Shown here one piece after another: positions 7,849 to 63,569 of a DNA stretch of 64,000 nucleotides. Position 1 is the stretch's first letter. Each line of letters opens with the position of its first letter. The DNA comes from Candidatus Cloacimonadales bacterium (GTDB lineage: Bacteria > Cloacimonadota > Cloacimonadia > Cloacimonadales > JAFGVF01), in assembly GCA_963692475.1 (NCBI GenBank), contig OY829950.1:1940554-2004553 (forward strand). Direction: 5' to 3'. The notes beneath the pieces were generated by a model that worked only from the letters and a program-made list of their open reading frames with translations, did no database searches and had not been told where the DNA came from. Both the position numbers and the translations under genes were made by a program.

Positions 7849-10146
7849 ATGAAAAAGACTTTTTATGTAGTAATATTGTTTGTCCTTACAATATCACTAT
7901 ACTCCATTCCCGATACTTTTATGAATATGCAAAACCTTGAAGGGGTTAGTTTAAAGCCTTACCAGTCACAAGCTCGCTGGCAAGCAAACTATGAGTTTTC
8001 AACTGTTCCTATCACTCTTTCGCCGACAAGACATGATTATTTCCCTGGAAGTTATGGAAGTAATCCTATTATAAGGGCTGAAACTCCCTCTTTAAATGGG
8101 CACTGGTTTACCTTCCAAGCGACATGTTATGATTATCCTTATACCCCTTTAAGAGTCTATAAGGGTTTCATTAATACTGATGCAGAGATCGAAGCGTTTC
8201 AACCTTTCGGTATTGATGATTTGTGGGAGAGTTCTCCAGCAATTGCCTTAAGTGAAGGGAAAAGACCATTTTTTTCCTATTTAGTTGATAAGGATAGCAA
8301 TCCAGGTCCCTATTATGATCATGATAACCAAAATTATGACTTAGCCTTTGGTTATGATGCTGTTATTGGCGGTATAGCTTTGGGAATGCATTCCGACTTA
8401 TTTTCTATTTTTGACGGTGAGTTAGAACTAAATATTGAGGGAGAAGATTATCAAATAAATCAACTTTTGCATCCAATAGTTCAGATTGGACCATCTCCTT
8501 TAGCTAATCATCAAAGAATTTATATCTGCGGACAAAATAAACATTCTGAAACAGACTATTTATGCTCTAATCCAGTAATTTTCTACAGTGATTTTACAGA
8601 AAGTGATATGGAATACCAGTTGATATTTGGTAATACTGACTGGCAATTTATAACTATCCCTGAGCTTAATGAATGGAATGTATCAACTACAGAATGCCGA
8701 AAACCAGTAATGAGTTTCAAAGTTATAAACAGTAAGTTATATTATATTGGCTACCATGAAGCTGCCGACTTTCAAATTGACCATAAAAACATAATTAATG
8801 AAGCATCGCTTGATGTTTTTGTTTGTGATAATTATGGTGAAGGTGAATGGGAAAGATACTCAATTTGGGATACCTTTGATTCTTATAACCCTAACTTTGT
8901 TAATCCTACTGGTTTCCACAAAGGAAGGCAAATGATTAAAGAATATTTTGATACAAGTAGTCAAGATTTCACAGATGAAGATATGTTTATCGGAATAGGA
9001 CAATCTAGTCACTTTAACGTAGGCGTTGATAATTATGGAAGACTACATATACCTGCTCTCTTCACACAAAAAACTTACTCAGGATATTATTACCCTGAAT
9101 TACATACTGTTAAAGATATAATATTTAATTGTTATAATAATGAGTTTAGCGTTTCTGAGGTCTATCCCCAAGCTAGAGTTGGAGAAATTGATGTTAGTGA
9201 TAACACTGAGTCTGTTAGTGACGAGTTACCTTGGTTATGGTGGGATAGTGATAACGATGGCTACTATGATGAAGTGCTTGATGACGGTACTTGGGATGGT
9301 ATAGATGATAACATTACTCAAGCTGATACAGATTATTGGGGCATGCCAGTGTTAAAAACTCTTTGGCCCTTCCAATATTGGGATGAATCAGCTTTACCAG
9401 ATGGGAATACACTTCCTTACCTTAACCATATTATGATTACTGATGCTAGTGACAATGGGGTTATGGCTATGGTATGGCATGATACTCAGAAATCTAGAAA
9501 CTATAACAAGTATCCTGATGATTATTCAGACTTAGCACCTTTTGCAGAGACTATAGAAACAATGATTAGTGTATCATCAAATTTTGGTTATTCTTGGTCA
9601 GACCCTATATCCCTTAACAATATTGATACTCCTGAATTAGCAGGACAAAACCCTGCCTTTGTCTATCCTGCAAACCAACTTGACTATATCACCTTTACTT
9701 ATACAGGAAACATAATGAGACTATATCTTATGTACAATGATGATACATCTTATGGTTCATCTGTACTGGGAATTGGACCTGAGACAGTAGGCTCTATTAA
9801 ATATGCTGCTTTGGATCTTGATATAGAAAACATGCCAGTAAATAATCTAAGCAGTGATATTACTCCGAGTATGACTACCTTAGTGCAAAACTATCCAAAT
9901 CCCTTCAACCCTGAGACAACTATAGCTTTTAACCTTACAAAACCTGATAAAGTTACCCTTGATATCTATAATATTAAAGGACAAAAAGTTAAGACTCTTC
10001 TAGATGATTATATTGAAGCTGGGAATCATAGCCTTGTTTGGAATGGTAGAAATGAGAATAATCAAGAAGTTGCTTCAGGAATCTATCTTTATAATATCAG
10101 AAATAGTAAATTTTCTTCTACCAAGAAAATGATTTTGATGAAATAG
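7849..10146 (+). CDS. Secreted protein with BNR/Asp-box-like motif and T9SS-type C-terminal sorting domain (paralog of 34237..36513)
   Basis: ORF track starts at TTG 7825. I prefer ATG 7849 (MKKTFYVVILF, GGAGGA RBS). Asp-box-like [27 protein letters not shown]...KKMILMK. Long identical blocks are shared with the 758-aa protein (LNEWNVST, EASLDVFVCDNYG, TESVSDE.PWLWWD, DDGTWDG). Confidence 0.85.
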   Translation: MKKTFYVVILFVLTISLYSIPDTFMNMQNLEGVSLKPYQSQARWQANYEFSTVPITLSPTRHDYFPGSYGSNPIIRAETPSLNGHWFTFQATCYDYPYTPLRVYKGFINTDAEIEAFQPFGIDDLWESSPAIALSEGKRPFFSYLVDKDSNPGPYYDHDNQNYDLAFGYDAVIGGIALGMHSDLFSIFDGELELNIEGEDYQINQLLHPIVQIGPSPLANHQRIYICGQNKHSETDYLCSNPVIFYSDFTESDMEYQLIFGNTDWQFITIPELNEWNVSTTECRKPVMSFKVINSKLYYIGYHEAADFQIDHKNIINEASLDVFVCDNYGEGEWERYSIWDTFDSYNPNFVNPTGFHKGRQMIKEYFDTSSQDFTDEDMFIGIGQSSHFNVGVDNYGRLHIPALFTQKTYSGYYYPELHTVKDIIFNCYNNEFSVSEVYPQARVGEIDVSDNTESVSDELPWLWWDSDNDGYYDEVLDDGTWDGIDDNITQADTDYWGMPVLKTLWPFQYWDESALPDGNTLPYLNHIMITDASDNGVMAMVWHDTQKSRNYNKYPDDYSDLAPFAETIETMISVSSNFGYSWSDPISLNNIDTPELAGQNPAFVYPANQLDYITFTYTGNIMRLYLMYNDDTSYGSSVLGIGPETVGSIKYAALDLDIENMPVNNLSSDITPSMTTLVQNYPNPFNPETTIAFNLTKPDKVTLDIYNIKGQKVKTLLDDYIEAGNHSLVWNGRNENNQEVASGIYLYNIRNSKFSSTKKMILMK

Positions 10147-10201
10147 TATCTTGCTGGGGAGAATGATAAATTAACAAATAGAAATATTAATGGAAATTAA
10201 T

Positions 10202-12490: not shown

Positions 12491-12624
12491 TTTATTTCCT
12501 CATTTCTTAGTAATCATATACTAATTTAGTAGGAATTAGTTTTTTGGCAAGTTTTTTTTCGATATTTTTTTCTTGGGTAATGGATAAATTGTTTGCGTTA
12601 GGGTTATATGGTACATAAAAAAAA

Positions 12625-12730
12625 ATGCCAGGCTACCGGTTGCACACTCTAAGCACCCCTTAATGCTGCTTCATTCCTGACCTGACATGGTTCGAGGGTT
12701 AAAGTTGCACCGGACCTGACTAAGTCAAAA
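12625..12730 (-). ncRNA. ffs: Signal recognition particle RNA (small bacterial 4.5S type)
   Basis: The minus strand reads ...GUCAGGUCCGGUGCAAC...GUCAGGUCAGGAAUGAAGCAGCAUUAAGGGG...GUGCAACCGGUAGCCUGGCAUUUUUUUU. The domain IV motif resembles E. coli CAGGUCCGGAAGGAAGCAGCC with a paired C-G to A-U change flanking the GGAA loop. The terminal helix closes CAGG/CCGG/UGCA, followed by a U-run. Ends are approximate. Confidence 0.75.
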
Positions 12731-13638: not shown

Positions 13639-13802
13639 AACCCAAATAATGCAATGGTTCTTTGAGAATAGCACTATATTCTTTTGCAAAAGTAACTTAC
13701 ATAATTCCTCCGAATATATATATTATATGCGTCAGAATTCTGCAAGCTATTTTGCTAAAAGAATTTGCACTCTTCACTAAAGCTCTATTGCACTATTAGG
13801 GT
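13639..13802 (+). mobile_element. MITE family 3 (TIR ACCCAAATAATGCA...), copy a
   Basis: Ends AACCCAAATAATGCAATGG ... CTATTGCACTATTAGGGT. The reverse complement is full-length alignable to 62839-63002. No ORF. Confidence 0.7.
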
Positions 13803-13828
13803 AAAAAATAGATAATCTCTGCTATCAA

Positions 13829-13908
13829 AGCTAGTGCTAAGGTAAATCTTTGTTTTAAATATACAGGGTCTAACTAACCCTGCATATTAAATGACATCCC
13901 TTCGGGAT
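13829..13908 (-). repeat. Three-hairpin module, copy 3 (free-standing, H3 degenerate)
   Basis: H2 CAGGGT-CTAACTA-ACCCTG 13864-13882. H1 ATCCC-TTC-GGGAT 13896-13908. The H3 position is reduced to AGC-TAGT-GCT. Confidence 0.6.
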
Positions 13909-14104
13909 TAGATAGATTGTCAAGTACCAATATAGTGGACACCTTTTTTATGTATCCTGAGTCATGTATCTCTTTTGAAAAATGAGACATTTACTCATAC
14001 TTTTGAGTTCTGTTGTCGACTCCATTTTGCATTCGTAATTTATTCGCATTTTTCAAAAGAAAATACATTCAGCTGTGTATCTGTTGATCATCTGGTAACC
14101 TCTT

Positions 14105-14890
14105 TTAATGATTTGCAAAATCATTTGGAGTAAAATACCCTAAACTTTTGTGAAGTCTCTGAGAGTTATAGATCATTACTGCATCTTTAGTAGCTTTTTT
14201 AAGACTTTCCATAGTGCTAAATGTCCGTTTTAATCCAAATTCATGCTTCATTGTACAATTTATCCTTTCAGCAATAGGGTTGTCATAGCATTTGCCATCA
14301 CCAGTCATACTAATCTTTATACCATGCTGTTTCAGAAGGTTAATAGTCTCATTACTTGTATATTGAGAACCATGATCTGAGTGGTGAATAAGATCGTTAG
14401 TATTATTAACATGTTTTAGCTGTCTTTTTAACATCTTTATATGATTATTAGTCAGCATATTAGAGGAAACTTCATAATCCAATATCTGTCTGGTATGCAT
14501 ATCACTTAGCAAAAACAAATAGTAAAATCCTTTGTCTTTAGAAATATAGGTAATATCAGTTACCCATACTTGATTTTTTCTCTCTACTATCATATTTTTA
14601 ATTAAATTAGGATATACTTTACTACCATCTGATATTGAAGTTTTGCAAAACTTTTTCTTTTTCCTTATTAACATATTTTGGTCTTTAAGAAGGTCATTAA
14701 GGTGCTTTTTTCCAATCTTTAGACCATCATTCTCCAGCATTTTCCATAATTTAACAGTGCCAACATAAGGCTGTGTTTCTTTGTACTGTTTCACTTTGGA
14801 GAGACACTGCAAGTCATTATGAGCGATGTGGAAGGCACTTTGAAGATATTTATAGTAACCTGACTTTGAAACATTTAATATTGAACACAT
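14105..14890 (-). CDS. IS3 transposase OrfB (DDE integrase core)
   Basis: LNVSKSGYYKYL (HTH_21-like), W.TDITYI, HSDHGSQYTS, DNP.AER..CT.K.E, all rve-type DDE motifs. One aa differs from copy 2. Confidence 0.9.
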   Translation of the reverse strand: MCSILNVSKSGYYKYLQSAFHIAHNDLQCLSKVKQYKETQPYVGTVKLWKMLENDGLKIGKKHLNDLLKDQNMLIRKKKKFCKTSISDGSKVYPNLIKNMIVERKNQVWVTDITYISKDKGFYYLFLLSDMHTRQILDYEVSSNMLTNNHIKMLKRQLKHVNNTNDLIHHSDHGSQYTSNETINLLKQHGIKISMTGDGKCYDNPIAERINCTMKHEFGLKRTFSTMESLKKATKDAVMIYNSQRLHKSLGYFTPNDFANH

Positions 14891-14895
14891 ATGTT

Positions 14896-15318
14896 TTATT
14901 CCTGATCTTTTAAAAGCCTTGATACTAAGATCTTTTGAGACTCTTTGGAGAAACCTGAATTTATGTTTTTTTTTAAATCAATACCTTTCTCTTCAGCCAT
15001 AAACTTAATATACTTTTCAAGGATTTCGTTTGAGAACTGGCTATCCTCTAAAGCCCGTTTTAACTGCTTATTTTCCTTTTTTAAAAGGTCTGCTTCTCTA
15101 GTTTCACGTTCTGTCATAATCATCACCTTTTTCCCTATTTTGTCGTTCATTCCATAACTCGCTAACCATCTACTTACGGTACTTTCTGAAACATTATATA
15201 TTCTACTAGATTCAGCTTGAGTTAAATCTCCTTGCTCAATCTCGTCAACAATTTTCATTTTAAAGGTTTCACTGTAGATTCTTTGCATTTTCGGTACCGT
15301 ACTTTTTTTCTTTAACAT
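14896..15318 (-). CDS. IS3 transposase OrfA (HTH)
   Basis: YSETFKMKIVDEIEQG...ESSRIYNVSESTVSRWL is the IS3 OrfA helix-turn-helix. A leucine-zipper-like region follows. Confidence 0.9.
   Translation of the reverse strand: MLKKKSTVPKMQRIYSETFKMKIVDEIEQGDLTQAESSRIYNVSESTVSRWLASYGMNDKIGKKVMIMTERETREADLLKKENKQLKRALEDSQFSNEILEKYIKFMAEEKGIDLKKNINSGFSKESQKILVSRLLKDQE
14966..14974 (-). other. Programmed -1 frameshift site candidate (A9 run on the coding strand)
   Basis: T9 on the plus strand equals A9 in orfA. Equivalent to 22810-22818 in copy 2. Confidence 0.6.
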
Positions 15319-15560
15319 GTCTTGCTCCTAGTTTAATATTTACTAGTCCACTTATATGGGACGACACAGATATGTCAGATAGTCTATTGGCGGTTTATTA
15401 GGGGTTTATTGGGCATCTATTGGCTATCCACTAAGCTGAAAACCAAGAGACACCTGATAGTGAAGATATATAAGTTCGATACATAAAATACGATCCTTTA
15501 GAAAAGAACTATGGATTAATTAAAAGACATGCTTGCTTAATATTGTTTTAAATTATATTA

Positions 15561-15833
15561 GGCTCTCTCCAAAGTAGAGTGGGTTAGTTTTATCATGAAA
15601 CTTGTTTTTACTGAAAGGAGGTGTTAACATCATCAAAAAAAAACGAAATATTATCGCCCTTCCAGGGCTAAGATAAATTTAGGTTTCATATATACAGGGT
15701 CTAACGAACCATGCCTATTAGATTAACATCCCTTCGGGATTATATGTGTATTAACTTCCATAAATTGACTATATATTTGTTAACATCTTACGACAATATT
15801 TATCATATTACCCACTCTACTTGAGATAGAGCC
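15561..15833 (-). mobile_element. MITE family 2 (23-bp TIR GGCTCTCTCCAAAGTAGAGTGGG), copy A
   Basis: GGCTCTCTCCAAAGTAGAGTGGG (15561-15583) and CCCACTCTACTTGAGATAGAGCC (15811-15833). Carries one three-hairpin module. No ORF. Confidence 0.7.
15656..15740 (-). repeat. Three-hairpin module, copy 4 (inside MITE family 2 copy A)
   Basis: H3 GCCC-TTCCA-GGGC 15656-15668. H2 CAGGGT-CTAACGA-ACCATG 15695-15713 (one mismatch). H1 ATCCC-TTC-GGGAT 15728-15740. Confidence 0.65.
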
Positions 15834-16003
15834 GAATATACTATAATAAAAGTCTCTTTTTTACCACATACTTTAACTTGAGCCTTTCCTTTTGGTAAAA
15901 TTCTAAATTCTGCATTTTTTAGTTACTATTTTTGAAAAACTCTTATAATAAAATTAACTTGCCAAAAATAAGTAAAATGATAAGTAAAGTATAGGAGGAG
16001 AAT

Positions 16004-18784
16004 ATGCCTAATTTTAAATTTGTAGATTTCTCATGTAATCTCTTACAGTTTAGTAATTTAACTCAGATTAAAGAAGCTTGTTTAGTAATTTATCCAACCC
16101 AAAATAATGCAAATCTGGCTCAAATGCATAGTCAGAATAGCTGGAGTTTTGAGAATATTTTATTTTTAGCTTTAGAAGATTTTGCAGATATGGTCTTACC
16201 TTGTAATCATAGCATTTTAGAAGATGACAAACGCGTTGTAGCTCTTTACCTCCTAATGACAGATGAGGAAAAGACTTTTTTTAAAGTAACTGATTTCTTT
16301 GATTTTATCAAATTAGCCAATAAAATCTTTACTCTCTTTGATGAGTTAGCAGTTGAGTTAATTGATTTCTCCTCTGTGTTTCAACTGCTTGAAGACGCTA
16401 ATTTAATCCCTTTCACATGGCAAAAAGATTACTATGAGAAAATTCTTCAGCTTTTAGCAAGATATCAAGAATGGTTAGCAGAGAATTTTATAGAAGACAA
16501 GATATTTCTAAAAAAAGAAGAGAATATTAACTTAGAATACTTTGCAGATTACTCTCATGTTTTTGTAGTTAATCAATTTTATTACACTGCTTTAGAAAGA
16601 GCTTTTATCGAACAAATGGAAAAAAGTGGTAAAGATGTAACTTTAGTATATCAGCTTCCTGAAGAGTTTGTAGATAAAACAACTTTTAACGCTCAGCCTT
16701 TTAAATATGAAGATTTAAGAAAACTAAATAAGCAAGAACCTGAATTGGAGTTAATAATAGATAGAAATAGATTCACTATGATGAACTCCTTATGTAGATT
16801 AATTACAGATAAAGAAATCACCCAAGTCATTGACAGAGATTTCTACAAAACTCCTTATGCTAAATTATTATCACGTAATTCTTTTAATGTAAAATATGAT
16901 AAGCCTATAATTAATTCTGAACTTTATCATTTCTTGGATATTATTAAACTTCTATTAGAATCATTAGAATTTTTTAACAAACAGTACTTTCTCCCCATTC
17001 ATATTCTTATCAGAGCCTTTCACAACAGTGGTTTCATTAACTATTTTCAAATCCCTAACTCCTCTATTTTATTAGAAGAACTGTACTCCCACCGTAACAA
17101 AGGCCTTCTCTACTGCGATATAAAGGGAAGTATAGGAAAGGAAGACATTTCTGAATCCTTAAAAAGAGCCATAGAGAAGATTCTATCTCTAATTAAGGCA
17201 ATTACTGAAATTAATTCTATTTCCTCTCTAATAGCTCTTTTTGACACCGAGAATGGTATCATTTTGGATAGGCTTACTTCTTCTGAAGATTTGCAATACA
17301 GCAACATTAAAGAGCTTGTTTATACTGAATTAGCCAATCTTCAATCCTTTACACATCACAAGCTTATTGATAAATGGAGTCGTCTCTCTGCTAAGGCTGA
17401 ATACCTGATAATTTACAAGCTTTTTATGGATGGCTTAAAATCGAAGACAATCAAGTACACGCAAAAAGATTCTCCGAGTTCGCTAAGGGTTAATTCTTTG
17501 CTTGATAGCCGTAACAATCGTTATGATTCCATAGTCTTTCTCAATATGCTTGAAGGAGTCTTGCCAACTGCTCGAACAAGTCAATTCCTCTTCAATGAAA
17601 GACAGCGAGAGATTCTCACCTTAAAGACTTATGAAGATATTCGTCTTAGAGAAAAGTACTATTTCCAACGCTTAGTTCTTTCTGCCAAGCATTGTTATTT
17701 TCTTGGTTTTGAGAATCTTGAACAAGACACTTCACTTTCTTCTTTCTTGGAAGAATTGCCTTTAATCAAGCCAGATAGAGACTTGAGACAGGCGGATAGA
17801 GGCTATGGTCAATTATTTAGTAAGAGTAAGAGTAAGAGTAAGATTGAGAATAGGGAATCATTGACTTTAAGTGATGATTTTTGGAGTGTTAAGTTATCTC
17901 CTTTTGAGCTTTCAAGAAATAGTTCAACAATGAAGCTTTCTTATACTCGACTAAAATCCCTAATTGATAATCCTCTTTACTATTTAATTCATGATTGGGC
18001 GAAAGTTTCGGAAAGAGAGATTTTATCAGACCCAAGCCTTGATTATCGTTTTGTTGGTATCTTTGCTCAAAACTATATTAATCATATAATTGCCAGAATA
18101 AAGGAGACTTTTATTAATCAGCAAGTCTTTTATAAGTTTCAATTTATGGATAGAAAAAGGCTGTCTGAAATCTATGATTCCTTTTTATTAACTTACCAAG
18201 ACAAAGATTATTATATTCCTCATAATTATTCTTATACTTTCTTGGAGAAAATCCTTAAAATTGCTTTAGTAGAAGGAATGAGTAGCTTCTTTTATAATAT
18301 AATGCACTCTAAGTTAAAGTTGTCGGAGAAGAAGTTGGACTTGATTCCAGAAGAGGGATATAGTCCTAATAAAAAGCAGAAATACAAAAGCTTCATTAGC
18401 GAATCTGAAAACAACTATAAACTTGGCATTGCTGTAACTGGGGATGCAGATTTAAGAGTGGAAAATCAAGAAGATGATAGTAAAGTTGTGATTGATTTCA
18501 AGACTGGTCGTTCCTCTCTGGATCAATTAGCTCTCTATCAATACATCTACTATTGGGATGATATAGAGGCAGGAAAGGAAGTGAAGGCTGGAATCTTCCA
18601 AATCATCAATCAGGAATGGAAAGCTCCGAAAGATGATGCTAATAAAACTATTTTGAAGTTAAAGAACAAGATTATTGAAGTTTTGAATGAAGTAGCCGAC
18701 ACAGGTTTCACTCTACCCAAGAATAAAACAGAAGCCAATAAATATGAAAAAATCACCAGATCAGATTTAGCATTAAGGAGATAA
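16004..18784 (+). CDS. addB: AddB/RexB-like subunit: inactivated helicase-like N-region plus C-terminal PD-(D/E)XK nuclease
   Basis: AGGAGG RBS, 926 aa. C-terminal GDADLRVENQEDDSKVVIDFKTGRS fits the AddB nuclease motif (D...(D/E)xK). No Walker A, and no Cys in the last ~300 aa. Its stop is 2 nt before the addA-like start. Confidence 0.7.
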   Translation: MPNFKFVDFSCNLLQFSNLTQIKEACLVIYPTQNNANLAQMHSQNSWSFENILFLALEDFADMVLPCNHSILEDDKRVVALYLLMTDEEKTFFKVTDFFDFIKLANKIFTLFDELAVELIDFSSVFQLLEDANLIPFTWQKDYYEKILQLLARYQEWLAENFIEDKIFLKKEENINLEYFADYSHVFVVNQFYYTALERAFIEQMEKSGKDVTLVYQLPEEFVDKTTFNAQPFKYEDLRKLNKQEPELELIIDRNRFTMMNSLCRLITDKEITQVIDRDFYKTPYAKLLSRNSFNVKYDKPIINSELYHFLDIIKLLLESLEFFNKQYFLPIHILIRAFHNSGFINYFQIPNSSILLEELYSHRNKGLLYCDIKGSIGKEDISESLKRAIEKILSLIKAITEINSISSLIALFDTENGIILDRLTSSEDLQYSNIKELVYTELANLQSFTHHKLIDKWSRLSAKAEYLIIYKLFMDGLKSKTIKYTQKDSPSSLRVNSLLDSRNNRYDSIVFLNMLEGVLPTARTSQFLFNERQREILTLKTYEDIRLREKYYFQRLVLSAKHCYFLGFENLEQDTSLSSFLEELPLIKPDRDLRQADRGYGQLFSKSKSKSKIENRESLTLSDDFWSVKLSPFELSRNSSTMKLSYTRLKSLIDNPLYYLIHDWAKVSEREILSDPSLDYRFVGIFAQNYINHIIARIKETFINQQVFYKFQFMDRKRLSEIYDSFLLTYQDKDYYIPHNYSYTFLEKILKIALVEGMSSFFYNIMHSKLKLSEKKLDLIPEEGYSPNKKQKYKSFISESENNYKLGIAVTGDADLRVENQEDDSKVVIDFKTGRSSLDQLALYQYIYYWDDIEAGKEVKAGIFQIINQEWKAPKDDANKTILKLKNKIIEVLNEVADTGFTLPKNKTEANKYEKITRSDLALRR

Positions 18785-18786
18785 GC

Positions 18787-21700
18787 ATGGATAATACATT
18801 AAAAAAAGTAATCATGGCATCGGCAGGAACAGGCAAGACTTATCGTTTATCCCTTGAATTCATCTCTATATTACTTAAATATAAAGACTATCCCGACTTT
18901 AATTTTAGCCAAATAGTTGTAATGACTTTTACTCGTAAAGCAACTGCTGAAATTAGAGAGAAGATACTTGATTTCTTGCAAGAACTCGCTAATGATGGTA
19001 AAGAATCAGTCCAAATAATCGGTAATCTTGAGAAAATTAGTGCTTATAAATGGCAAAGTAAGGACAGAGATTATATCAAAACTAAACTTCTGCCTGAAAT
19101 TCTGCAAAGAAAAGACTTACTTCAAGTCTCGACCATTGATTCATTCACGACAAATATCTTTAAAAGTATGATTGCCCCTTACTTACGCATCAAAGAGTTC
19201 TCTATTGATAATAATTCTAACGATGAAATTATGCCTTTGCTTCTTGACTTCATCTTTTCACAGCAAATATTCCCTACTTTTGAGCCTCTTCTTAAGCGAC
19301 TAAATATCAGAACTGTTGAAGATATTCAAGGTTTTATCAAGTCACTAATAAATAATCGTTGGGTTTTAGACTATTATGATAATGATAATATGGAAGGATT
19401 TTTTACTAAATATATGAATTTAGATAAGCCTATGATTGAAGATGTTAAAAAGCATCTTTGGGATGACTTTAAGGCTAACTATCTTGCTCTGGTAGAAGAG
19501 TATAATGAAAGTGTCTATGAGCCTCAAGATAAGCCTTGGCATAAACTTTTAATAGCAGATTACAAGGCAATAGTAGAGCTTGATGAAAATGATAAACTTA
19601 ACATTGTTCAAGTATTTGAAGCTATTCTGGCTAATCCTGATGAAGTCATTCGTAATATAAAAACATTCTTTGACAAGCCACTTCCTTTCTCTAAAACTGG
19701 CAAAAAAGTCTATAAAGAAATTACCCTTGACTTAGAACCCCACTTTACTCAAGCCCTTACTACTTTGCTTGATTACTATCTGTTTTCGGAGATAATTCCT
19801 CTGCAAAAGGAAGTTTTAACAGGCTGGGAAGCACTCTGTAATCACTATGACAAACTCAAGTTTTCTCTGGGTAAATTCACTTATAACGACATTACTTTCT
19901 ATACTTACAAATACCTTTATGAAGAGTCTTTATCGCTTATTGACAGAGAGAAAGGAATCGTTACAAATCTCTTCTATGAACAGTTAGTAAGTCGCATTGC
20001 TTTCTTGCTGATTGATGAATTTCAGGACACTTCTTTTAATCAATTTTCCATTCTGTTTCCTATCATAACAGAACTAATTAGTGGCTATGCTGTCAAAGAT
20101 TATTCTGGTGTGATTATTGTTGGCGACCCTAAGCAGTCTATTTATTCTTGGCGGGGTGGCGAAAGGGGAATAATGGAGATTATGCCTAAGATTTTAGATG
20201 ATACAAAAGCAGAAGATTTAAGTCAGTGTTATCGTTCTTCGCGTCCAGTTATCGATATGGTGAATAGGATTTTTACCAATCAAGTCTATAAGAATCCCAC
20301 AAGCCAAGAGAAAATTGAGTGGAATTATTCTCCTGTAAGAGCTAAAAACTGGTCTGCCGATAATAATTGCTATAATGAAGAGAAGGAAGAGGGTGGCGAA
20401 CTTTTCTACTGGGAATATAATAGTTATTCTGCTAATAAAAAAGCTTCTGATGAAGAAGATGATGATAAAAAGAATGATGATAACTTAAAGAGCTATGAAG
20501 TCTTTGCTCAAGAGATTAATAGTCTTCATCAAGCAGGGAAAATCCACTGGAGTGAAACTGCTATCTTAGTTCGGACTCATAAAAATGCTGATGGTATTGC
20601 AAACACACTAAATAAGCTTGGTATTCCTAATAATATTGAATCTTCCGGCAAACTCTTAGAACATAAAGCTGTGGAAGTCTTGCTCTCAATTCTTAAATTC
20701 AGACTCCTAGAAGATAGATTCTCCTTACTGCAAATTCTTCGTTCAGGCCTTGTGCTTAGCGATGGAAATACCCTTGCTGAAATGCTTAAAATTATCCATG
20801 ACAATAAAGCAGATGATGGCAATGAAAAGCTAATGACAGAACTTAGTAACTTCCCGGAATGCCAAAAACTCTTCACTCTTATGAATCAAAACTATTCATC
20901 ACAAGCTCACTTTATCACAGAAACTCTTACCCACTATGACTTTAGTAGAATTTGTCAAAATGAAATTGATTGGAAAAATATCTACACTTTCTTAGAATTT
21001 CTTATCAACTTTGAACTTGCTGAAGTAAAGACAAAAACTTTCGACCTCTATGGTTTTATGGAATATTGCCAAGAACAAGTCAAGACTGATAGCGAGATTC
21101 TCCAAGAAGGACTCCAATTAGAAGATTCTATCTCCATTCTCACAGTTCATAAATCTAAAGGACTCGGCTTCAAGCATGTTTTCCTCTATTGGGATTTAAC
21201 AAATAAAAAAGCACCTAATAAGGGTGATGAATTTAAGCTTGCCTACTCTTTTACAGAGAATTATTCAGGCTTGAAGGATTTTGTTATCTATTCCTCGGCA
21301 ATGGATGAAAAAGTGCTGAAAAACTCAAGTGAGAATAAATTAATGCAGAATAATGTTAATCGGGAAATTATTGAAGCTATTGATGTATTTTATGTCGCTC
21401 TTACTCGGGCAGAACATTCGCTTGGACTCTTCATTAACTATTCTAAGAAAGATGGTTTTATGGCACATATCGATTCTCTAAAAGATGAAACAGCGATTAT
21501 CAGTCAACTTGTTATAGCCTATAAAGACTTCTTTAGGGAAAATGAAGGGGAAAATTTAAGTAGAGAGAATCTTGCTTATTTCCACTACTTCAAAGCAGGC
21601 AAGCAAGAGAAAATAGAGGCTAAGTCTGATGAAAATGATTCTAACCCAGAAGAAGTCAACTATTTGCAGAAATACCTAACAGACTATTCCCAACCAATAT

Positions 21701-22200
21701 TGGAAGAGAATAAGCCTCTGGAAAATATGAAGAAAGTTTATCTTGAAGATAGACACCAACTCTTTGGTAACGCTGCCCACGAATTTCTGACTTATGTTAA
21801 ATATAAGGATGATTGCCTCACAACTTCTTTCAGTATGGTATATCGTAAATTCGGAAGCCTTCTCTCACACCTTAGTATTATTGCTGTATTCCACGCTTGT
21901 ATAGGTTTCATTAAAACTAATAAAGAGATATTTTCACCTGAATGGGATAAAGTCTTCAATGAAAAGACTGTTTTTGATAATGGTAAAGAGTATCGTATCG
22001 ATAGAATGATGATTAATACTAAAAGAAAAGAAGTGATGATTATTGATTATAAGACGGGTGGTATTCACAATAAAGAACAGGTAAATCACTATGTTGAGAT
22101 TATTAAGAAGCTTCCCTTTGTGAAAGATAATGGCTATAAAGTTAGTGGTAAATTCATAGAAGTAAAAGTCCCTGCTGAAGGAGTTGAGATTGATGAATGA
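18787..22200 (+). CDS. addA: AddA/RecB-like UvrD-family helicase with C-terminal PD-(D/E)XK nuclease
   Basis: SF1 motifs ASAGTGKT (I), LLIDEFQDTS (II), VGDPKQSIYSWRGG (III), TVHKSKGLGF (V), FYVALTRAEHSL (VI). Nuclease motif GNAAHEFL ... RIDRMMIN...VMIIDYKTGG. Confidence 0.85.
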   Translation: MDNTLKKVIMASAGTGKTYRLSLEFISILLKYKDYPDFNFSQIVVMTFTRKATAEIREKILDFLQELANDGKESVQIIGNLEKISAYKWQSKDRDYIKTKLLPEILQRKDLLQVSTIDSFTTNIFKSMIAPYLRIKEFSIDNNSNDEIMPLLLDFIFSQQIFPTFEPLLKRLNIRTVEDIQGFIKSLINNRWVLDYYDNDNMEGFFTKYMNLDKPMIEDVKKHLWDDFKANYLALVEEYNESVYEPQDKPWHKLLIADYKAIVELDENDKLNIVQVFEAILANPDEVIRNIKTFFDKPLPFSKTGKKVYKEITLDLEPHFTQALTTLLDYYLFSEIIPLQKEVLTGWEALCNHYDKLKFSLGKFTYNDITFYTYKYLYEESLSLIDREKGIVTNLFYEQLVSRIAFLLIDEFQDTSFNQFSILFPIITELISGYAVKDYSGVIIVGDPKQSIYSWRGGERGIMEIMPKILDDTKAEDLSQCYRSSRPVIDMVNRIFTNQVYKNPTSQEKIEWNYSPVRAKNWSADNNCYNEEKEEGGELFYWEYNSYSANKKASDEEDDDKKNDDNLKSYEVFAQEINSLHQAGKIHWSETAILVRTHKNADGIANTLNKLGIPNNIESSGKLLEHKAVEVLLSILKFRLLEDRFSLLQILRSGLVLSDGNTLAEMLKIIHDNKADDGNEKLMTELSNFPECQKLFTLMNQNYSSQAHFITETLTHYDFSRICQNEIDWKNIYTFLEFLINFELAEVKTKTFDLYGFMEYCQEQVKTDSEILQEGLQLEDSISILTVHKSKGLGFKHVFLYWDLTNKKAPNKGDEFKLAYSFTENYSGLKDFVIYSSAMDEKVLKNSSENKLMQNNVNREIIEAIDVFYVALTRAEHSLGLFINYSKKDGFMAHIDSLKDETAIISQLVIAYKDFFRENEGENLSRENLAYFHYFKAGKQEKIEAKSDENDSNPEEVNYLQKYLTDYSQPILEENKPLENMKKVYLEDRHQLFGNAAHEFLTYVKYKDDCLTTSFSMVYRKFGSLLSHLSIIAVFHACIGFIKTNKEIFSPEWDKVFNEKTVFDNGKEYRIDRMMINTKRKEVMIIDYKTGGIHNKEQVNHYVEIIKKLPFVKDNGYKVSGKFIEVKVPAEGVEIDE

Positions 22201-22465
22201 AGAGAGAAAGATGGATTTAGCCACCGAAACCACCGAAAACACTGAAAAGAAAAAGAGCTTTCACACGAATTAACTCGAATTAATCCGAATTTCACAAATA
22301 AGATGAAGAAAGAAGGAAATCTATCCAGATGTCTTCGCTAATACATTCTCAGAAGCTGTAGCGAAGTATGATGGCAACGAAGATGACTGGGTGTTAGATA
22401 TGTTGTGGCTGATTGTGTGTCGTCCCATATAAGTGGACTAGTAAATATTAAACTAGGAGCAAGAC

Positions 22466-22888
22466 ATGTTAAAGAAAAAAAGTACGGTACCGAAAATGCA
22501 AAGAATCTACAGTGAAACCTTTAAAATGAAAATTGTTGACGAGATTGAGCAAGGAGATTTAACTCAAGCTGAATCTAGTAGAATATATAATGTTTCAGAA
22601 AGTACCATAAGTAGATGGTTAGCGAGTTATGGAATGAACGACAAAATAGGGAAAAAGGTGATGATTATGACAGAACGTGAAACTAGAGAAGCAGACCTTT
22701 TAAAAAAGGAAAATAAGCAGTTAAAACGGGCTTTAGAGGATAGTCAGTTCTCAAACGAAATACTAGAAAAGTATATTAAGTTTATGGCTGAAGAGAAGGG
22801 TATTGATTTAAAAAAAAACATAAATTCAGGTTTCTCGAAAGAGTCTCAAAAGATCTTAGTATCAAGGCTTTTAAAAGATCAGGAATAA
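22466..22888 (+). CDS. IS3 transposase OrfA (HTH)
   Basis: 140 aa, identical to copy 1 except V/I in SEST(V/I)SRWL. Confidence 0.9.
   Translation: MLKKKSTVPKMQRIYSETFKMKIVDEIEQGDLTQAESSRIYNVSESTISRWLASYGMNDKIGKKVMIMTERETREADLLKKENKQLKRALEDSQFSNEILEKYIKFMAEEKGIDLKKNINSGFSKESQKILVSRLLKDQE
22810..22818 (+). other. Programmed -1 frameshift site candidate (A9)
   Basis: orfB is in the -1 frame relative to orfA. The orfB frame is closed by TGA at 22804-22806 and opens at 22807, immediately before the A9 run. A slip would give ...GIDLKKKHKFRFLERVSKDLSIKAFKRSGIKHMCSILNVSKSGYY... Confidence 0.6.
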
Positions 22889-22893
22889 AACAT

Positions 22894-23679
22894 ATGTGTT
22901 CAATATTAAATGTTTCAAAGTCAGGTTACTATAAATATCTTCAAAGTGCCTTCCACATCGCTCATAATGACTTCCAGTGTCTCTCCAAAGTGAAACAGTA
23001 CAAAGAAACACAGCCTTATGTTGGCACTGTTAAATTATGGAAAATGCTGGAGAATGATGGTCTGAAGATTGGAAAAAAGCACCTTAATGACCTTCTTAAA
23101 GACCAAAATATGTTAATAAGGAAAAAGAAAAAGTTTTGCAAAACTTCAATATCAGATGGTAGTAAAGTATATCCTAATTTAATTAAAAATATGATAGTAG
23201 AGAGAAAAAATCAAGTATGGGTAACTGATATTACCTATATTTCTAAAGACAAAGGATTTTACTATTTGTTTTTGCTAAGTGATATGCATACCAGACAGAT
23301 ATTGGATTATGAAGTTTCCTCTAATATGCTGACTAATAATCATATAAAGATGTTAAAAAGACAGCTAAAACATGTTAATAATACTAACGATCTTATTCAC
23401 CACTCAGATCATGGTTCTCAATATACAAGTAATGAGACTATTAACCTTCTGAAACAGCATGGTATAAAGATTAGTATGACTGGTGATGGCAAATGCTATG
23501 ACAACCCTATTGCTGAAAGGATAAATTGTACAATGAAGCATGAATTTGGATTAAAACGGACATTTAGCACTATGGAAAGTCTTAAAAAAGCTACTAAAGA
23601 TGCAGTAATGATCTATAACTCTCAGAGACTTCACAAAAGTTTAGGGTATTTTACTCCAAATGATTTTGCAAATCATTAA
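22894..23679 (+). CDS. IS3 transposase OrfB (DDE integrase core)
   Basis: 261 aa, one aa different from copy 1 (NDFQCL vs NDLQCL). Probably expressed as an OrfAB fusion. Confidence 0.9.
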   Translation: MCSILNVSKSGYYKYLQSAFHIAHNDFQCLSKVKQYKETQPYVGTVKLWKMLENDGLKIGKKHLNDLLKDQNMLIRKKKKFCKTSISDGSKVYPNLIKNMIVERKNQVWVTDITYISKDKGFYYLFLLSDMHTRQILDYEVSSNMLTNNHIKMLKRQLKHVNNTNDLIHHSDHGSQYTSNETINLLKQHGIKISMTGDGKCYDNPIAERINCTMKHEFGLKRTFSTMESLKKATKDAVMIYNSQRLHKSLGYFTPNDFANH

Positions 23680-23954
23680 AAGAGGTTACCAGATGATGAA
23701 CAGATACACAGCTGAATGTATTTTCTTTTGAAAAATGCGAATAAATTACGAATGCAAAATGGAGTCGACAACAGAACTCAAAAGTATGAGTAAATGTCTC
23801 ATTTTTCAAAAGAGATACATGACTCAGGAGACATAAAAAAAGATGTCCACTATATTGGTACTTGACATTGCCTCTTATGTAGGACGGTAGAGATTGACTC
23901 TCCAATAAAGTTCTACTACACTATCTTGGTTAAAATATCCCTCTCAAGGTCTGT

Positions 23955-34184: not shown

Positions 34185-34236
34185 AGCGACTAAATAAATA
34201 GAAGTTAAATCAACTAGCTCATAAGTTTATATGATA

Positions 34237-36513
34237 CTATTTCATTAACACCATTTTCTTCATTTGTGTATTATCTGGACTATTTAATTTATAAAAATAT
34301 AGTCCTGAAGAGACATTATTACCATTGTTATCTTGTCCTTTCCACACATAAGAGTGTTCTCCAGCTTGAACATTTCCTTTAACTAATGTGTTCACTAACT
34401 GACCTTTAATATTATAGATACTTAGCTCGACATTACCTGCTTTTGGCATATCAAAAGAGATAGTAGTTTCAGGATTGAAAGGATTTGGATAATTTTGTTT
34501 TAATTGAGAACTTGGCATTACAACATTGTTGTCAATATTTGGAGTTGCAGAACCGAAATCGATATCAATAGCAGCATACATCATTGTTCCACCAGTTGCT
34601 TGTCCGATTCCTTGTTCTGAAGAACCATAAGTGTTATCATCAAGATACATGAAATGAAGTCTACCAATAGGACCTGTTCCTGTAGGTGATTGAATAAAAT
34701 CAATTTTATTGGTTGGATAAACAAAAGTAGGGATTTGTCCTTCTAATTCAGGAACTTCTACACTGTTTAAGGAGAATGGTTCTGACCATGAAGCACCATT
34801 ATCAGCAGAAACACTTATCATCGTTTCGATATTTTGTCCAAAAGGTTCTAATTCAGGATATAAGGTTGGATTCTTATTATAGTCACGAGATTTTTGAGTA
34901 TCATGCCAAATCATTGCCATCATACCGAATTCGTTAGCGTCAGTAATTCTAATGTGATTTAAATGGAAAAGAGCAGCTTGTTCATCTCCACCATCTTCAT
35001 CCCAATATGGGAAAGGCCACATAGTTTCAAGAAGAGGCATTCCCCAATATTCGGTATCATCTTGAGTTACACCATCATCTTCTCCGTCCCAAGTACCATC
35101 ATCAGCAATTTCATCAATGATACCATCGCCATTAGTATCCCACCATAACCAAGGAACCTCATCACTTACACTTTCAGTGTTTCCTGTTATATCAAAAACT
35201 CTTGTAGCTGATTGTGGATAGACTTCATTAACTTTGAAGCTATTATCATTAGGGTCAAAAATCACTGTCTTAACAGTATGCAAGGCAGGATAATAAGTCC
35301 CTTCATAAGTCTTCTGAGTAAATAGGGCTGGCATGTGAATTCTTCCATTATTATCAACAGCAAGATTGAAGTGACCTGATTCTCCAATACCGATATACAT
35401 ATCTTCATCAGAATAATCATGTTCATTTGTATCGAAATATTCTTCTGTCATTTCTGTACCTTCGTGGAAGCCGGTAGGGTCAATATAGTTGGGGTTATAA
35501 GAATCAAAACTATCCCAAAGAGAATATCTTTGCCATTGGCCTGCTCCATAGTTATCACAGACAAAAACATCAAGAGATGCTTCATTTATTGATTCTGCAG
35601 TGGAAGCGCTACTTTCTGCAGCAAAATGATAACCAATATAATAGAGCTTGTCTTCAATAACTTTGAAACTCATAAATGGTCTTCTCCATTCACCAGTGGA
35701 CACATTCCATTCATTAAGGTCTGGAATCGATGTTGATTCCCAATTTGTTGGAGCAAATGTTTGATATTCAATTTCTTCTTCAGTGAAATCTTTATAAATT
35801 ATATAAATGTTCTCAGAAGCAGCACCTGATGCTGACCATCCATTTCTGCCACAAACATAAACTCGTTGATGACCTTCTAATGGGGATGGACCAATTTGAA
35901 CTGATGGCCAGTTAAATTCATTACTTGAGTAAGTTTGACCATTAACTTCGATTGTTGTCGGTGAATCTATCACTGTAAACAAGTCAGAATTTTGATTAAT
36001 GGCGGTTCCACCAATAACCGCATCATAACCTAAGCCTACTTCCCATTGGCTATCAGAAGCATCCCAATTTCCATGATAAGCAAAGATTGGTCTTCCACCA
36101 GAAGTTAAACCAAGTCCGGCATAACCTTCATTAGTGTCATTAATGTTAAAAGTGGAATTTGCTAAAACAGAACCAGTTGCATCTATAAAAGCTTTATAGA
36201 CTCTTCTTTCACTACTTGGAGTGGCTTTAGCATGATAAATAATCCAGTTACCATTAATTCCCCCAGTAGCAGAGAGGTCCACTCTCATCATAGGAATTGC
36301 TCCGTATGTTCCTGGGAAATAGTCGTAATAATTATCCATAATTGAGACTGGGTTAATTGCGAATTCATAAGGTGTTTCAAAACGATTCTGAGATTGGTAA
36401 GGTCTCAAACTAACTTGATCTAATTTAATTCCTGTTAACGGCGTGTTTGTATCTGCTAATAGGCAAGTAGCAAATACGAGAATCAAAGTAATAATCATAA
36501 ATGTTTTTTTCAT
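34237..36513 (-). CDS. Secreted protein with BNR/Asp-box motif and T9SS-type C-terminal sorting domain (paralog of 7849..10146)
   Basis: Signal peptide MKKTFMIITLILVFATCLLA. Asp-box [27 protein letters not shown]...KKMVLMK. Confidence 0.88.
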   Translation of the reverse strand: MKKTFMIITLILVFATCLLADTNTPLTGIKLDQVSLRPYQSQNRFETPYEFAINPVSIMDNYYDYFPGTYGAIPMMRVDLSATGGINGNWIIYHAKATPSSERRVYKAFIDATGSVLANSTFNINDTNEGYAGLGLTSGGRPIFAYHGNWDASDSQWEVGLGYDAVIGGTAINQNSDLFTVIDSPTTIEVNGQTYSSNEFNWPSVQIGPSPLEGHQRVYVCGRNGWSASGAASENIYIIYKDFTEEEIEYQTFAPTNWESTSIPDLNEWNVSTGEWRRPFMSFKVIEDKLYYIGYHFAAESSASTAESINEASLDVFVCDNYGAGQWQRYSLWDSFDSYNPNYIDPTGFHEGTEMTEEYFDTNEHDYSDEDMYIGIGESGHFNLAVDNNGRIHMPALFTQKTYEGTYYPALHTVKTVIFDPNDNSFKVNEVYPQSATRVFDITGNTESVSDEVPWLWWDTNGDGIIDEIADDGTWDGEDDGVTQDDTEYWGMPLLETMWPFPYWDEDGGDEQAALFHLNHIRITDANEFGMMAMIWHDTQKSRDYNKNPTLYPELEPFGQNIETMISVSADNGASWSEPFSLNSVEVPELEGQIPTFVYPTNKIDFIQSPTGTGPIGRLHFMYLDDNTYGSSEQGIGQATGGTMMYAAIDIDFGSATPNIDNNVVMPSSQLKQNYPNPFNPETTISFDMPKAGNVELSIYNIKGQLVNTLVKGNVQAGEHSYVWKGQDNNGNNVSSGLYFYKLNSPDNTQMKKMVLMK

Positions 36514-36852
36514 AGTTCCTCCACTATAAATTTATAATACAACAACAAAGTAAAATAATCATACTATAGATATAGTATAATTACCCTAATTAATTAATTA
36601 ATTCTATAGCTATAATTAAAACTTATTGAGTTAAAAAAGATTGTCAAGCTATAAATTTGTTAATTAGAGGGTATTGCATAATATAACTAATGAATAGCTA
36701 TATGTATTTACTGAAATGCAAATTCTTGTAAGATTATATTTTTACTATGCTTTAGTTACTTAACAATATTTTAAATGAGGTAGATTCTTCTGATTTGAAT
36801 TGCATAATTTTGGCTATTGTTCAAGTGTAGTGGAAAAAAGAGCCTTTTATTA

Positions 36853-37124
36853 GGCTCTCTCCAAAAGTAGAGTGGGAAATTTGATAAATAATTTAAAAAG
36901 GGATTTATTCCTTCTGTTTTTATTTTTGTGAAAATAATATTTATCTAATCCCGAAGGGATGTCATTTAATAGGCAGGGTTCGTTAGACCCTGTATATATG
37001 AACCAAAGATTTATCTTAGCCCTGGAAGGGCGTCATTATTATTGATTTTGCTGATGTGGACATCCACTTTTAGACAAACTAAACACATGAACTAAATTAC
37101 GCCCACTCTACTTGAGAGAGAGCC
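36853..37124 (+). mobile_element. MITE family 2, copy B, nested in family 1
   Basis: TIRs GGCTCTCTCCAAAAGTAGAGTGGG / CCCACTCTACTTGAGAGAGAGCC. 8-bp direct repeat TTTTATTA at 36845-36852 and 37125-37132. Copy C has a single uninterrupted TTTTATTA at the equivalent position. Confidence 0.8.
36948..37031 (+). repeat. Three-hairpin module, copy 5 (inside MITE family 2 copy B)
   Basis: H1 ATCCC-GAA-GGGAT 36948-36960. H2 CAGGGT-TCGTTAG-ACCCTG 36974-36992. H3 GCCC-TGGAA-GGGC 37019-37031. Confidence 0.7.
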
Positions 37125-37255
37125 TTTTATTATAATATATTCATTGTATAATAGAAAGTAACGAGTTTAAGTTTACTGTTTAGAGTAAGTTTTGCTTGTA
37201 AATAATACTTTAATAATATAATTTTAAAACAATATTAAGCAAGCATGTCTTTTAA

Positions 37256-37445
37256 CCCAAATAATGCAGAAGATCTTTTAGAATAGCACTATATTCATTT
37301 GCTAAAGCATTTTACATAATTTCTCAGAGTATATATATTATACGCTGATAAATTCTGTAAAACCTTAATGCACCCCCTGTGTCCCCCTCAAAAAAGGGGA
37401 TAAGAATCTGCACTCTTCTGCAAAGCTCTACTGCACCATTCGGGT
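37256..37445 (+). mobile_element. MITE family 3, copy c, nested in family 1
   Basis: CCCAAATAATGCAG ... CTGCACCATTCGGGT flanked by TTAA (37252-37255 and 37446-37449). Copy A shows the uninterrupted site GGATTAATTAAAAG (15513-15526, opposite strand). Confidence 0.8.
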
Positions 37446-37763
37446 TTAATTAATCCATAGTTCTTTTCTAAAGGATCATATTATATGTATTGAACTTATA
37501 TATCTCCACTATCAGGTGTCTCTTGGTTTTCAGCTTAGTGGATGGCTAATAGATGCCCAATAAACCCCTAATAAACCGCCAATGGACTATCTGAAATAAA
37601 GCAGATAATGAAGGATTTAGATTTACCAAGAACAAAAAGATTGATTATTGGGTGTTAACAGAAAATTCTACAAAGAGGTGACCTATTTATGAAATTTTCA
37701 CCTGACTTGAACTTGAGTCTTTTGTTTTCGAGACATCATACTTGGATATAGTCTTCACATTAA

Positions 37764-40346: not shown

Positions 40347-40405
40347 ACCAAAATAATGCAGTAGATCTTTATGAATATCAATATATTCTACTACTTCATT
40401 CGGGT
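40347..40405. repeat. MITE family 3, minimal 59-bp derivative (copy d)
   Basis: CACCAAAATAATGCAGTAG ... CTACTACTTCATTCGGGT retains only the two TIR regions. Located just downstream of the methyltransferase gene on the minus strand. Confidence 0.6.
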
Positions 40406-56885: not shown

Positions 56886-57014
56886 GGCTTTAACTCCGAG
56901 TAAAATTAATTTCTGCAACATTGGAAATCATTACCATAAATTTATACTAAGCTGGATAAATAATCAACTACTTATCCGATTTAGTAGCAATAGTTTGTTA
57001 GGATGAATATTAAC

Positions 57015-57445
57015 GGTTCAAGTTAAGTATAGTGGTAAAAAAGAGACTTTTATTATAGTATATTCATTGTATAATAGAAAGTTGCGAGTTTTAATTTACT
57101 GTTTATAGTAAGTTTTGCTTGAAAATAAGACTCTAATAATAGAATTTATAACAATAGTTAGTAGGCATGTCCTTTAGTTAATGCATTGTTCTTTTCTATA
57201 AGATCATATTATATGTATTGAACTAATATATCTTAACTATAATGTGTCTGTTGGTTCTCAGCTTAGTGGATAGCTAATAGATACCATATAAACCCCTAAT
57301 AAACCCCCAATAGACTATCTGACATAAAGCAGATAATGTAGGATTATCTTTGCCAAGAACAAAAAGACTTAATGTCGGATGTTAAGAGAAAATTATAAAA
57401 GATGTGGTTTATTTATAAAATTTCCACCAGACTTGAACTTGAGCC
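57015..57445 (+). mobile_element. MITE family 1, copy C (431 bp, uninterrupted, intact TSD)
   Basis: GGTTCAAGTTAAGT... / ...ACTTGAACTTGAGCC terminal inverted repeats. Perfect 8-bp direct repeat ATATTAAC at 57007-57014 and 57446-57453. No ORF. Confidence 0.85.
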
Positions 57446-57458
57446 ATATTAACTTACT

Positions 57459-60372: not shown

Positions 60373-60378
60373 TCGATT

Positions 60379-60453
60379 GATGCAGTAGAACTTTTGTGAA
60401 GAGTGCAGAATAATATAGGGCTATTCACAAAGGTCTACTGCATTATTTTGGTT
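60379..60453 (-). repeat. MITE family 3, short derivative (copy e), between convergent fhs and activator genes
   Basis: GATGCAGTAGAAC ... GGTCTACTGCATTATTTTGGTT. The internal GTGAAGAGTGCA block is shared with copy b. Forms a long hairpin. Confidence 0.6.
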
Positions 60454-62838: not shown

Positions 62839-63002
62839 AACCCAAATGGTGCAATAGACTTTAGTGAAGAGTGCAAATTCTTTTAGCAAAATAGCTTGGA
62901 GAATTCTGACGCATATAATATATATATTCGGAAGAATTATGTAAGTTACTTTTGCAAAAGAATATAGTGCTATTCTCAAAGATCTATTGCATTATTTGGG
63001 TT
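62839..63002 (-). mobile_element. MITE family 3, copy b
   Basis: Full-length reverse-complement match to 13639-13802. Ends CCCAAATGGTGCAATAG ... CTATTGCATTATTTGGGT, flanked by TTAA on both sides. Confidence 0.75.
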
Positions 63003-63206
63003 TAAATCTTGTTTTATCGTCCTTAGGAAACTCTTCAATCAGCAAGCCACCCTCTTCTATAGTTTATCCTTAAAGAAGTCGATAATATTGCACATCTTTA
63101 GGTTTTCTTGACATTTTACAATGAATGTATATTGGTAACAAAGCCTCTTCATTGGTAATGCGGATGACCACATTCGCTTCCAAGCGATAGCTTGGAAATT
63201 CTTAAA

Positions 63207-63288
63207 ATCCCAGAGGGATGAAAATATAATAGACAGTGTTCGAAGACACTGTTACGGATAAAAAAGAATAATGAGCTCTAGAGGGGCG
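63207..63288 (+). repeat. Three-hairpin module, copy 6 (left arm of Q)
   Basis: H1 ATCCC-AGA-GGGAT 63207-63219. H2 CAGTGT-TCGAAG-ACACTG 63234-63251. H3 GCTC-TAGAG-GGGC near 63274-63288 (T-G wobble on the plus strand). Confidence 0.65.
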
Positions 63289-63322
63289 ACAATATTTATT
63301 TATTTTTGTGCTAGTATATTAT

Positions 63323-63409
63323 CGCCCCTCTGGGGCTTAGGTCTGTGGGGGAATTATTGTACAGTGTCTAACGAACACTGCCTATTATATCTGCATCCTT
63401 TGATGATTC
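63323..63409 (-). repeat. Three-hairpin module, copy 7 (right arm of Q)
   Basis: H3 GCCCC-TCT-GGGGC 63323-63336. H2 CAGTGT-CTAACGA-ACACTG 63362-63380. H1 decayed (63393-63409). Confidence 0.6.
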
Positions 63410-63569
63410 TAAGATGTCTTCTTCCAATATCTGAGATTTAGATATAAATACGAAACTATAAATCAAATTAGAAAATATAAATAATTTTATATAAAATGTG
63501 CACTAATTGATTCATATGAAGGATTAAAGGATTTATTATCTATTAGTTAGATTGAACAGTCTCGTTCTA

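Follow-up and report, generated by a model that had tools for sequence, protein, structure and literature searches.

Nested transposable elements (TEs) of prokaryotes, known as 'Russian dolls', have already been described, and pipelines for TEs take such nests apart explicitly (PMC3852290). MITEs related to insertion sequences (ISs) of the ISL3 family have also been described, for example the ISMac21-related MITE of Methanosarcina acetivorans (PMC3852290). Here, we analysed a window of 64 kb, an AT-rich stretch of DNA (~32% GC) whose encoded proteins include T9SS sorting domains (FlgD_ig, Por_Secre_tail). Among named organisms, 'Candidatus Cloacimonadales' and 'Cloacimonetes' provide the best relatives of these proteins, so the host probably belongs to Cloacimonadota. 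At positions 36812-37719, two MITEs of distinct families are nested in a MITE of a third family. This structure is very probably an ISL3-derived family-1 MITE that was later hit by a family-2 and a family-3 MITE, all of them moved in trans. A preliminary description had proposed that two MITEs inserted independently into a host MITE, each with its own duplication and with an empty site in sister copies, and our analysis upholds this architecture. All junction coordinates in the window were checked by direct reading.

The host element, copy B of family 1 (36812..37719, + strand), measures 908 bp as found and separates a LytTR response-regulator gene from a T9SS-cargo gene. After removal of both inserts and of one copy of each duplication, 434 bp remain. 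In MAFFT alignments, this cleaned copy is collinear from end to end with copy C, a clean family-1 element of 431 bp (57015..57445, + strand) that has empty sites for both inserts, with 369/430 identical positions (85.8%). It is also collinear with the surviving part of copy A (225/240 identical), which lies on the - strand (15371..15884), is cut off at 15371 beside an IS3-family IS and likewise offers an empty site for both inserts of copy B. The collinearity of copies B and C claimed beforehand is thus borne out. The left terminal inverted repeat (TIR) of copy B, GGCTATTGTTCAAGTGTAGTGG (36812..36833, + strand), is degenerate, and the right one, GACTCAAGTTCAAGTCAGGTGA (37698..37719, - strand), shows three mismatches with the TIR of a full-length ISL3-family IS (locus L024, see below). 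The flanks of copy B, ATAATTTT and TTTTGTTT, do not form a target-site duplication (TSD). Copy C is bordered on either side by a perfect 8-bp TSD, ATATTAAC (57007-57014 and 57446-57453). The 6-bp TSD named in the preliminary description does not exist. Identity among copies of one family ranges from 72 to 96%; with such values and with a copy B devoid of TSD, the proposal that these elements are active or recently active finds no support. A search of a genome contig collection with a family-1 core pattern returned a sole match, in Finegoldia (L001), attributable to chance, and blastn of the whole nest against a plasmid collection returned no match.

The first insert is a family-2 MITE of 272 bp (36853..37124, + strand) bounded by TIRs of 23-24 bp, GGCTCTCTC..AAGTAGAGTGGG. 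It starts at 36853 with GGCTCTCTCC (also given as GGCTCTCTCCAAAAGTAGAGTGGG) and ends at 37124 with GAGAGAGAGCC (also given as CCCACTCTACTTGAGAGAGAGCC). The octanucleotide TTTTATTA is found immediately on both sides, at 36845..36852 and at 37125..37132. The corresponding empty site is GAGACTTTTATTATAGTATATTC in copy C, and the reverse strand of copy A is identical there; each contains a single unbroken TTTTATTA. The probability that an 8-bp flank match occurs by chance at ends fixed by the TIRs is ~4e-5 (per-base match probability of 0.28), and zero chance matches of the TIR patterns are expected in shuffled sequence. Copy B has GAGCC in place of the GAGAC of copies A and C, so that the direct repeat surrounding the insert in copy B extends to 14 nt (AGAGCCTTTTATTA; 36838-36852 vs 37119-37132). 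Gap placement by itself thus leaves the junction ambiguous, and it is the ends given by the TIRs that set the duplication at 8 bp. To the left of the site, the host sequence (AAGAGCC in B, AAGAGAC in the two other copies) also resembles the family-2 terminus, GAGAGCC. This likeness beside the insertion site could be due to chance, to local conversion or to a tendency of the ISL3 enzyme to choose targets next to end-like sequence. An 8-bp TSD is absent around the family-2 copy of copy A, around a 303-bp family-2 MITE of another locus (L008; 81% identical to the B insert) and around the three metagenomic ISs (L002, L004 and L007) presented below.

The second insert is a family-3 MITE of 189 bp (37256..37444, + strand) that starts with CCC, ends with GGG and has TIRs CCCAAATAATGCAGAAGATCTTT and CCCGAATGGTGCAGTAGAGCTTT; these limits are preferable to the 37256-37445 initially given. 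Copy B reads GTCT-TTTAA-[CCC...GGG]-TTTAA-TTAATCC at this place, with the two TTTAA at 37251..37255 and 37445..37449, while the empty site is the unbroken GTCTTTTAATTAATCC in copy A and GTCCTTTAGTTAATGC in copy C. For a 5-bp TTTAA flank match at fixed ends, the chance probability is ~2e-3. The TTAA flanks noted in the preliminary description are literally present (37252-55 and 37446-49), but the duplicated string is best read from the sequence as the 5-bp TTTAA: a 4-bp TTAA reading needs an asymmetric element (CCC...GGGT), whereas symmetric ends give an added TTTAA.

Family 3 comprises five copies in the window and three in related loci (L002, L023 and L024), with TIRs of 23-35 bp and the terminal boundary sequence CCCAAATAATGCAR. 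These elements have the generic attributes of MITEs, being short, non-coding and multi-copy, with TIRs and flanking duplications. TTTAA is found on both sides of four copies: the B insert, the copy at 62841..63000 (- strand, in the opposite orientation to the B insert), a copy in a related genome (L023:16209-16373) and a mini copy of 42 bp (L024:5443-5484). In the window, the others are a copy at 13641..13801 (+ strand) with flanks TTAAA and TAAAA, a mini copy made of the TIRs only at 40348..40403 (+ strand) with flanks TTTCA and TTTAA, and a short copy with a degenerate left end, located between two convergent genes at 60373..60451 (- strand). The latter (79 bp) and the copy at 40348-40403 (56 bp) are essentially TIR-only derivatives lying directly 3' of gene ends; the one at 60373-60451 begins just past the FTHFS stop codon, and its hairpin could serve as a terminator. 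Since copies lie in either orientation with respect to TTTAA, the target of the element corresponds to the palindromic TTWAA. Moreover, as TTAA is itself palindromic, the boundary between TIR and duplication cannot be fixed, and the sequences allow a duplication of 5 bp with CCC ends, of 3 bp (TWA) with ACCC ends, or of 1 bp.

The family-3 copy nested in copy B contains an extra GC-rich hairpin segment of ~28-32 nt, CACCCCCTGTGTCCCCCTCAAAAAAGGGGAT (37370..37401, + strand), carried by no other family-3 copy and unique in the window. This segment may add a fourth, very small layer to the nest. In a related genome, a tandem array between the ArgRS and methyltransferase genes (L023:6978-7307) consists of seven 47-bp repeats of this motif (92% matches); the window has no array at that site. 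An autonomous partner of family 3 was found in none of the fetched loci. In scans of viral contigs with two family-3 TIR patterns, one pattern gave five chance matches without extended similarity and the other gave none.

The core of family 2 is occupied by a module of ~100 nt made of three hairpins (36941..37040, + strand in the B insert). This module occurs seven times in the 64 kb (2405-2501, 2591-2689, 13781-13915, 15647-15747, 36941-37040, 63200-63296 and 63315-63414) and once more at L008:927-1057. The three hairpins are ATCCC-GAA-GGGAT, CAGGGT-loop-ACCCTG and GCCCT-loop-AGGGC. Compensatory changes are observed in all three stems; in stem 2, a U-A pair in four copies is replaced by G-C in four. 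The module is also present as inverted pairs in two repeats of 540-620 bp (2216-2835 and 63027-63563; 68% identical), and both of these regions lie upstream of large secreted-protein genes. An Rfam search with the module retrieved no family at threshold. Acido-Lenti-1 RNA (RF01687) was considered and discarded: it scores 27.1 bits at 36947-36993(-), to be compared with a gathering threshold of 37, and against the other six modules it gives either 17.7 bits, as a partial match, or no match. Finally, a covariance model of the module identified no copies beyond its training set in 171 kb (window and loci).

Full-length ISs link families 1 and 2 to ISL3. For family 2, one metagenome scan with the TIR pattern GGCTCTNTCN{2,3}AAGTAGAGTGGG led to eight loci. 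In three of them (L002, L004 and L007), the pattern bounds 1355-bp elements with a 100% match to the MITE end over 23 nt. Each has an ORF of 413-420 aa that matches Pfam DDE_Tnp_ISL3 (PF01610; E 2e-55 to 2e-58) and Zn_ribbon_ISL3 (PF14690), as well as NCBIfam transpos_ISL3 (NF033550; 246 bits for a cutoff of 180). The family-2 MITE and the 1355-bp IS have the TIR alone in common. These three elements lie on short, possibly chimeric metagenome contigs, and the ISs of L018, L024 and L025 were reached via transposase homologues. The 1356-bp IS of L024 (2400-3755) encodes P0017, a protein of 409 aa with PF01610 and PF14690 that shares 44% identity with the L004 transposase. The TIR of this IS, GGCTCAAGTTCAAGTCTGGTGGAA, is present at both ends and is identical at 24/24 positions to the right end of copy C; in addition, family 1 resembles the right end of the IS over its own final 60-88 bp (75-79% identity). 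Perfect 8-bp TSDs flank the L024 element (TTTTATTT) and the related ISL3 ISs of L018 (AAAAATAA) and L025 (ATAATTTA), and a 7/8 match flanks that of L016.

On the basis of their TIRs, of the transposase family of the full-length ISs and of the 8-bp TSDs, families 1 and 2 can be classified as ISL3-derived MITEs. The ISL3-like character of the ends, put forward in the preliminary description, holds for both families, given that the full-length ISs bearing the same TIRs code for transposases of the ISL3 family and that ISL3 parents show 8-bp TSDs. As both families are of ISL3 type with 8-bp duplications, they represent one chemistry, which rules against the three distinct chemistries envisaged earlier. 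The statement that no cognate transposase lies in the 64 kb agrees with tblastn searches, in which three ISL3 transposases detected no ISL3 transposase in the window.

Copy A lies in a second accumulation of insertions. It is a mosaic, its left 50 bp resembling copy C (49/50, 98%) and its interior resembling copy B (95.8%). It contains a family-2 copy (15561..15833, - strand) inserted 10 bp further in than that of copy B, in the same orientation and without TSD, and 81 bp of host sequence are missing beside it. The family-2 copies of A and B are not orthologous, because they are only ~72% identical, below the 81% observed between the L008 copy and the B insert. At its truncated end, copy A meets an IS3-family IS of 1451 bp (13918..15368, - strand; 3-bp TSD GAT) with orfA of 140 aa and orfB of 261 aa (domains HTH_Tnp_1 and rve). 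This IS is positioned exactly where the copy A remnant adjoins a truncated family-2-like fragment (13813-13917). Hence, region 13641-15884, in which a family-3 copy, the family-2-like fragment, the IS3 element and copy A adjoin, is a second pile-up of mobile debris. Another IS3-family copy, 99% identical and inverted, is found at 22416..23867 (+ strand; 3-bp TSD TTG). The two IS3 copies bracket 7 kb with the copy A remnant and two large helicase/nuclease-like genes (16004-22200), an arrangement reminiscent of a composite transposon. Recombination between the inverted IS3 copies, considered as a way of moving the missing part of copy A, was rejected: both keep their 3-bp TSDs (GAT and TTG), and no family-1 remnant flanks the second copy. 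Overall, at least four insertions entered two sister 431-bp elements within ~5% divergence. Such repeated hits may reflect a preference for AT-rich targets together with the neutrality of insertion into dead elements.

We then compared the copy B locus with related genomes. Locus L023, taken from a 3.3-Mb contig, has 76-84% nucleotide identity across genes and the same order of histidine-kinase (HK) gene, response-regulator (RR) gene, intergenic region and T9SS protein gene. It is devoid of copy B, and 187 bp of unrelated sequence (L023:10782-10968) stand for window positions 36798-37740. L023 therefore shows the absence of copy B, not a clean empty site. This 187-bp stretch is GC-richer and resembles nothing in the window; it represents either a further inserted element or an ancestral segment that the lineage of the window has lost. 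At two further loci with orthologues of the RR gene (L029 and L030), synteny is lost past this gene and none of the three families is present. Elsewhere in the window, paralogous T9SS-cargo genes (~760-770 aa) at 7824-10150 and 34233-36538 are inverted relative to each other and share 64% DNA identity, and their conserved C-terminal sorting-domain region is found again at 7199-7458. A bacterial small SRP RNA is located at 12623-12721 (-) (Rfam RF00169; 73.4 bits, E 1.9e-14).

How the nest formed can be proposed from these comparisons. Family 1 (~431 bp) would have arisen from an ISL3-family IS through loss of the transposase gene, and one such element would have landed between the LytTR response-regulator gene and the T9SS-cargo gene. 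Two later non-autonomous insertions would have occurred in its AT-rich interior: the family-2 MITE (272 bp), whose ends match over 23 bp those of another ISL3-family IS, would have created the 8-bp duplication TTTTATTA, and the family-3 MITE (189 bp), using a TTWAA target, would have duplicated TTTAA. Transposases with genes at other places would have mobilised all three elements in trans. In the case of families 1 and 2, an ISL3-family DDE transposase would bind the GGCTC... terminal inverted repeats and cut AT-rich DNA with an 8-bp stagger, gap repair then yielding the duplication. We infer both the mobilisation in trans of families 1 and 2 and this order of events. The polarity comes from the sister copies. 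The interior of copy A is identical to copy B at 182/190 positions (95.8%), copy C being at ~86%. Copy A is thus sister to B, with C as outgroup, and neither A nor C has either insert; therefore, the inserts are gains in B. The absence of copy B from the syntenic locus L023 speaks for the scenario. Counting against it are the missing TSD and the degenerate left TIR of copy B, the unrelated 187 bp that L023 has instead of a clean empty site, the lack of TSDs around the family-2 copy of copy A, the L008 MITE and the ISs of L002, L004 and L007, and the fact that the searches yielded no parent of family 3. The reverse history, in which copy B is ancestral and copies A and C lost both inserts by precise excision, for instance by slippage between flanking direct repeats, is extremely unlikely. 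Precise excision between TSDs is known, as a low-frequency event, and the 14-nt direct repeat at the first insert would favour slippage; however, four independent precise losses (both inserts, in A and in C) would be needed instead of two gains, the grouping of A with B to the exclusion of C speaks against it, and families 2 and 3 are also found free-standing elsewhere.

Another question is how family 3 inserts. Strict use of a penta-nucleotide target is typical of the IS200/IS605 family, and one occupied/empty pair of sites cannot tell a duplicated TTTAA from an element that ends in TTTAA and inserted after a TTTAA. Family 3 could accordingly be imagined as a palindromic element of IS200/IS605 type (PATE), with a TTTAA of its own at the terminus, that inserts 3' of TTTAA without any duplication. 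We consider this very unlikely: the family-3 TIRs are true repeats of 23-35 bp that begin right at the termini without being palindromes, and the element is found in both orientations relative to TTTAA (the B insert and the 62841 copy being opposite), which points to a symmetric TTWAA target and not to a strand-specific one. As for an assembly artefact, all three families are multi-copy, a situation in which dispersed repeats might be collapsed or mis-joined. Such an origin of the nest is hardly conceivable, given junctions that fall exactly at TIR ends, matching duplications and a host sequence that is back in register on both sides; a mis-join would not produce TSDs, and the source is apparently a 3.07-Mb contig. 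A gain of two MITEs by a family-1 element thus remains the preferred reading. It is unlikely that more is hidden in this locus, namely that the family-3 enzyme belongs to a type not linked so far in prokaryotes to CCC...GGG ends, a strict TTWAA target and 5 bp, or that the three-hairpin module acts as a functional structured element, of RNA or DNA, which an ISL3-type MITE has spread.

The three MITE families are new in sequence and of a known kind; the nest is ordinary genomic debris and involves no new mechanism. In the searchable literature, we found no paper on MITEs or ISL3 elements of Cloacimonadota and no IS with a TTTAA duplication. The locus provides a clean case of MITEs piling into one another in AT-rich intergenic DNA, with parent IS families identified for families 1 and 2. 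Three MITE families without earlier description, together with the two ISL3 partners, are thereby added for a little-studied, uncultivated phylum (Cloacimonadota-like), where they are of use in annotating genomes, masking repeats and typing strains.

Family 3 can be compared with two kinds of elements. Those of piggyBac type have a TTAA target and CCC...GGG termini. Family 3 resembles them in its CCC...GGG termini and in the TTAA contained in its target. Unlike them, it adds 5 bp and its right flank is always GGG-T-TTAA, which does not fit a 4-bp TTAA duplication. Elements of the IS1380 family have CC ends and 4-5-bp duplications. Family 3 shares with them a CC(C) start and the addition of 5 bp. 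Because of the ambiguous boundary between TIR and TSD, IS5-type (TNA) and IS982-type parents are equally conceivable, so that, going by such signatures, the family-3 parent may be of any of these three types. Families 1 and 2 match known ISL3 MITEs in being small and without ORF, with TIRs that begin with GGCTC and 8-bp AT-rich duplications. In contrast to known ISL3 MITEs, family 2 keeps only the TIR of its parent, around a core made of a three-hairpin module that is also found outside MITEs, and family 1 still has, from the 3' end of its parent IS, ~60-88 bp. Finally, as in the nested TEs of prokaryotes and plants, one element here lies within another and each insert has its own TSD. This case is unusually well documented, since the two empty sites are preserved in sister copies in the same 64 kb.
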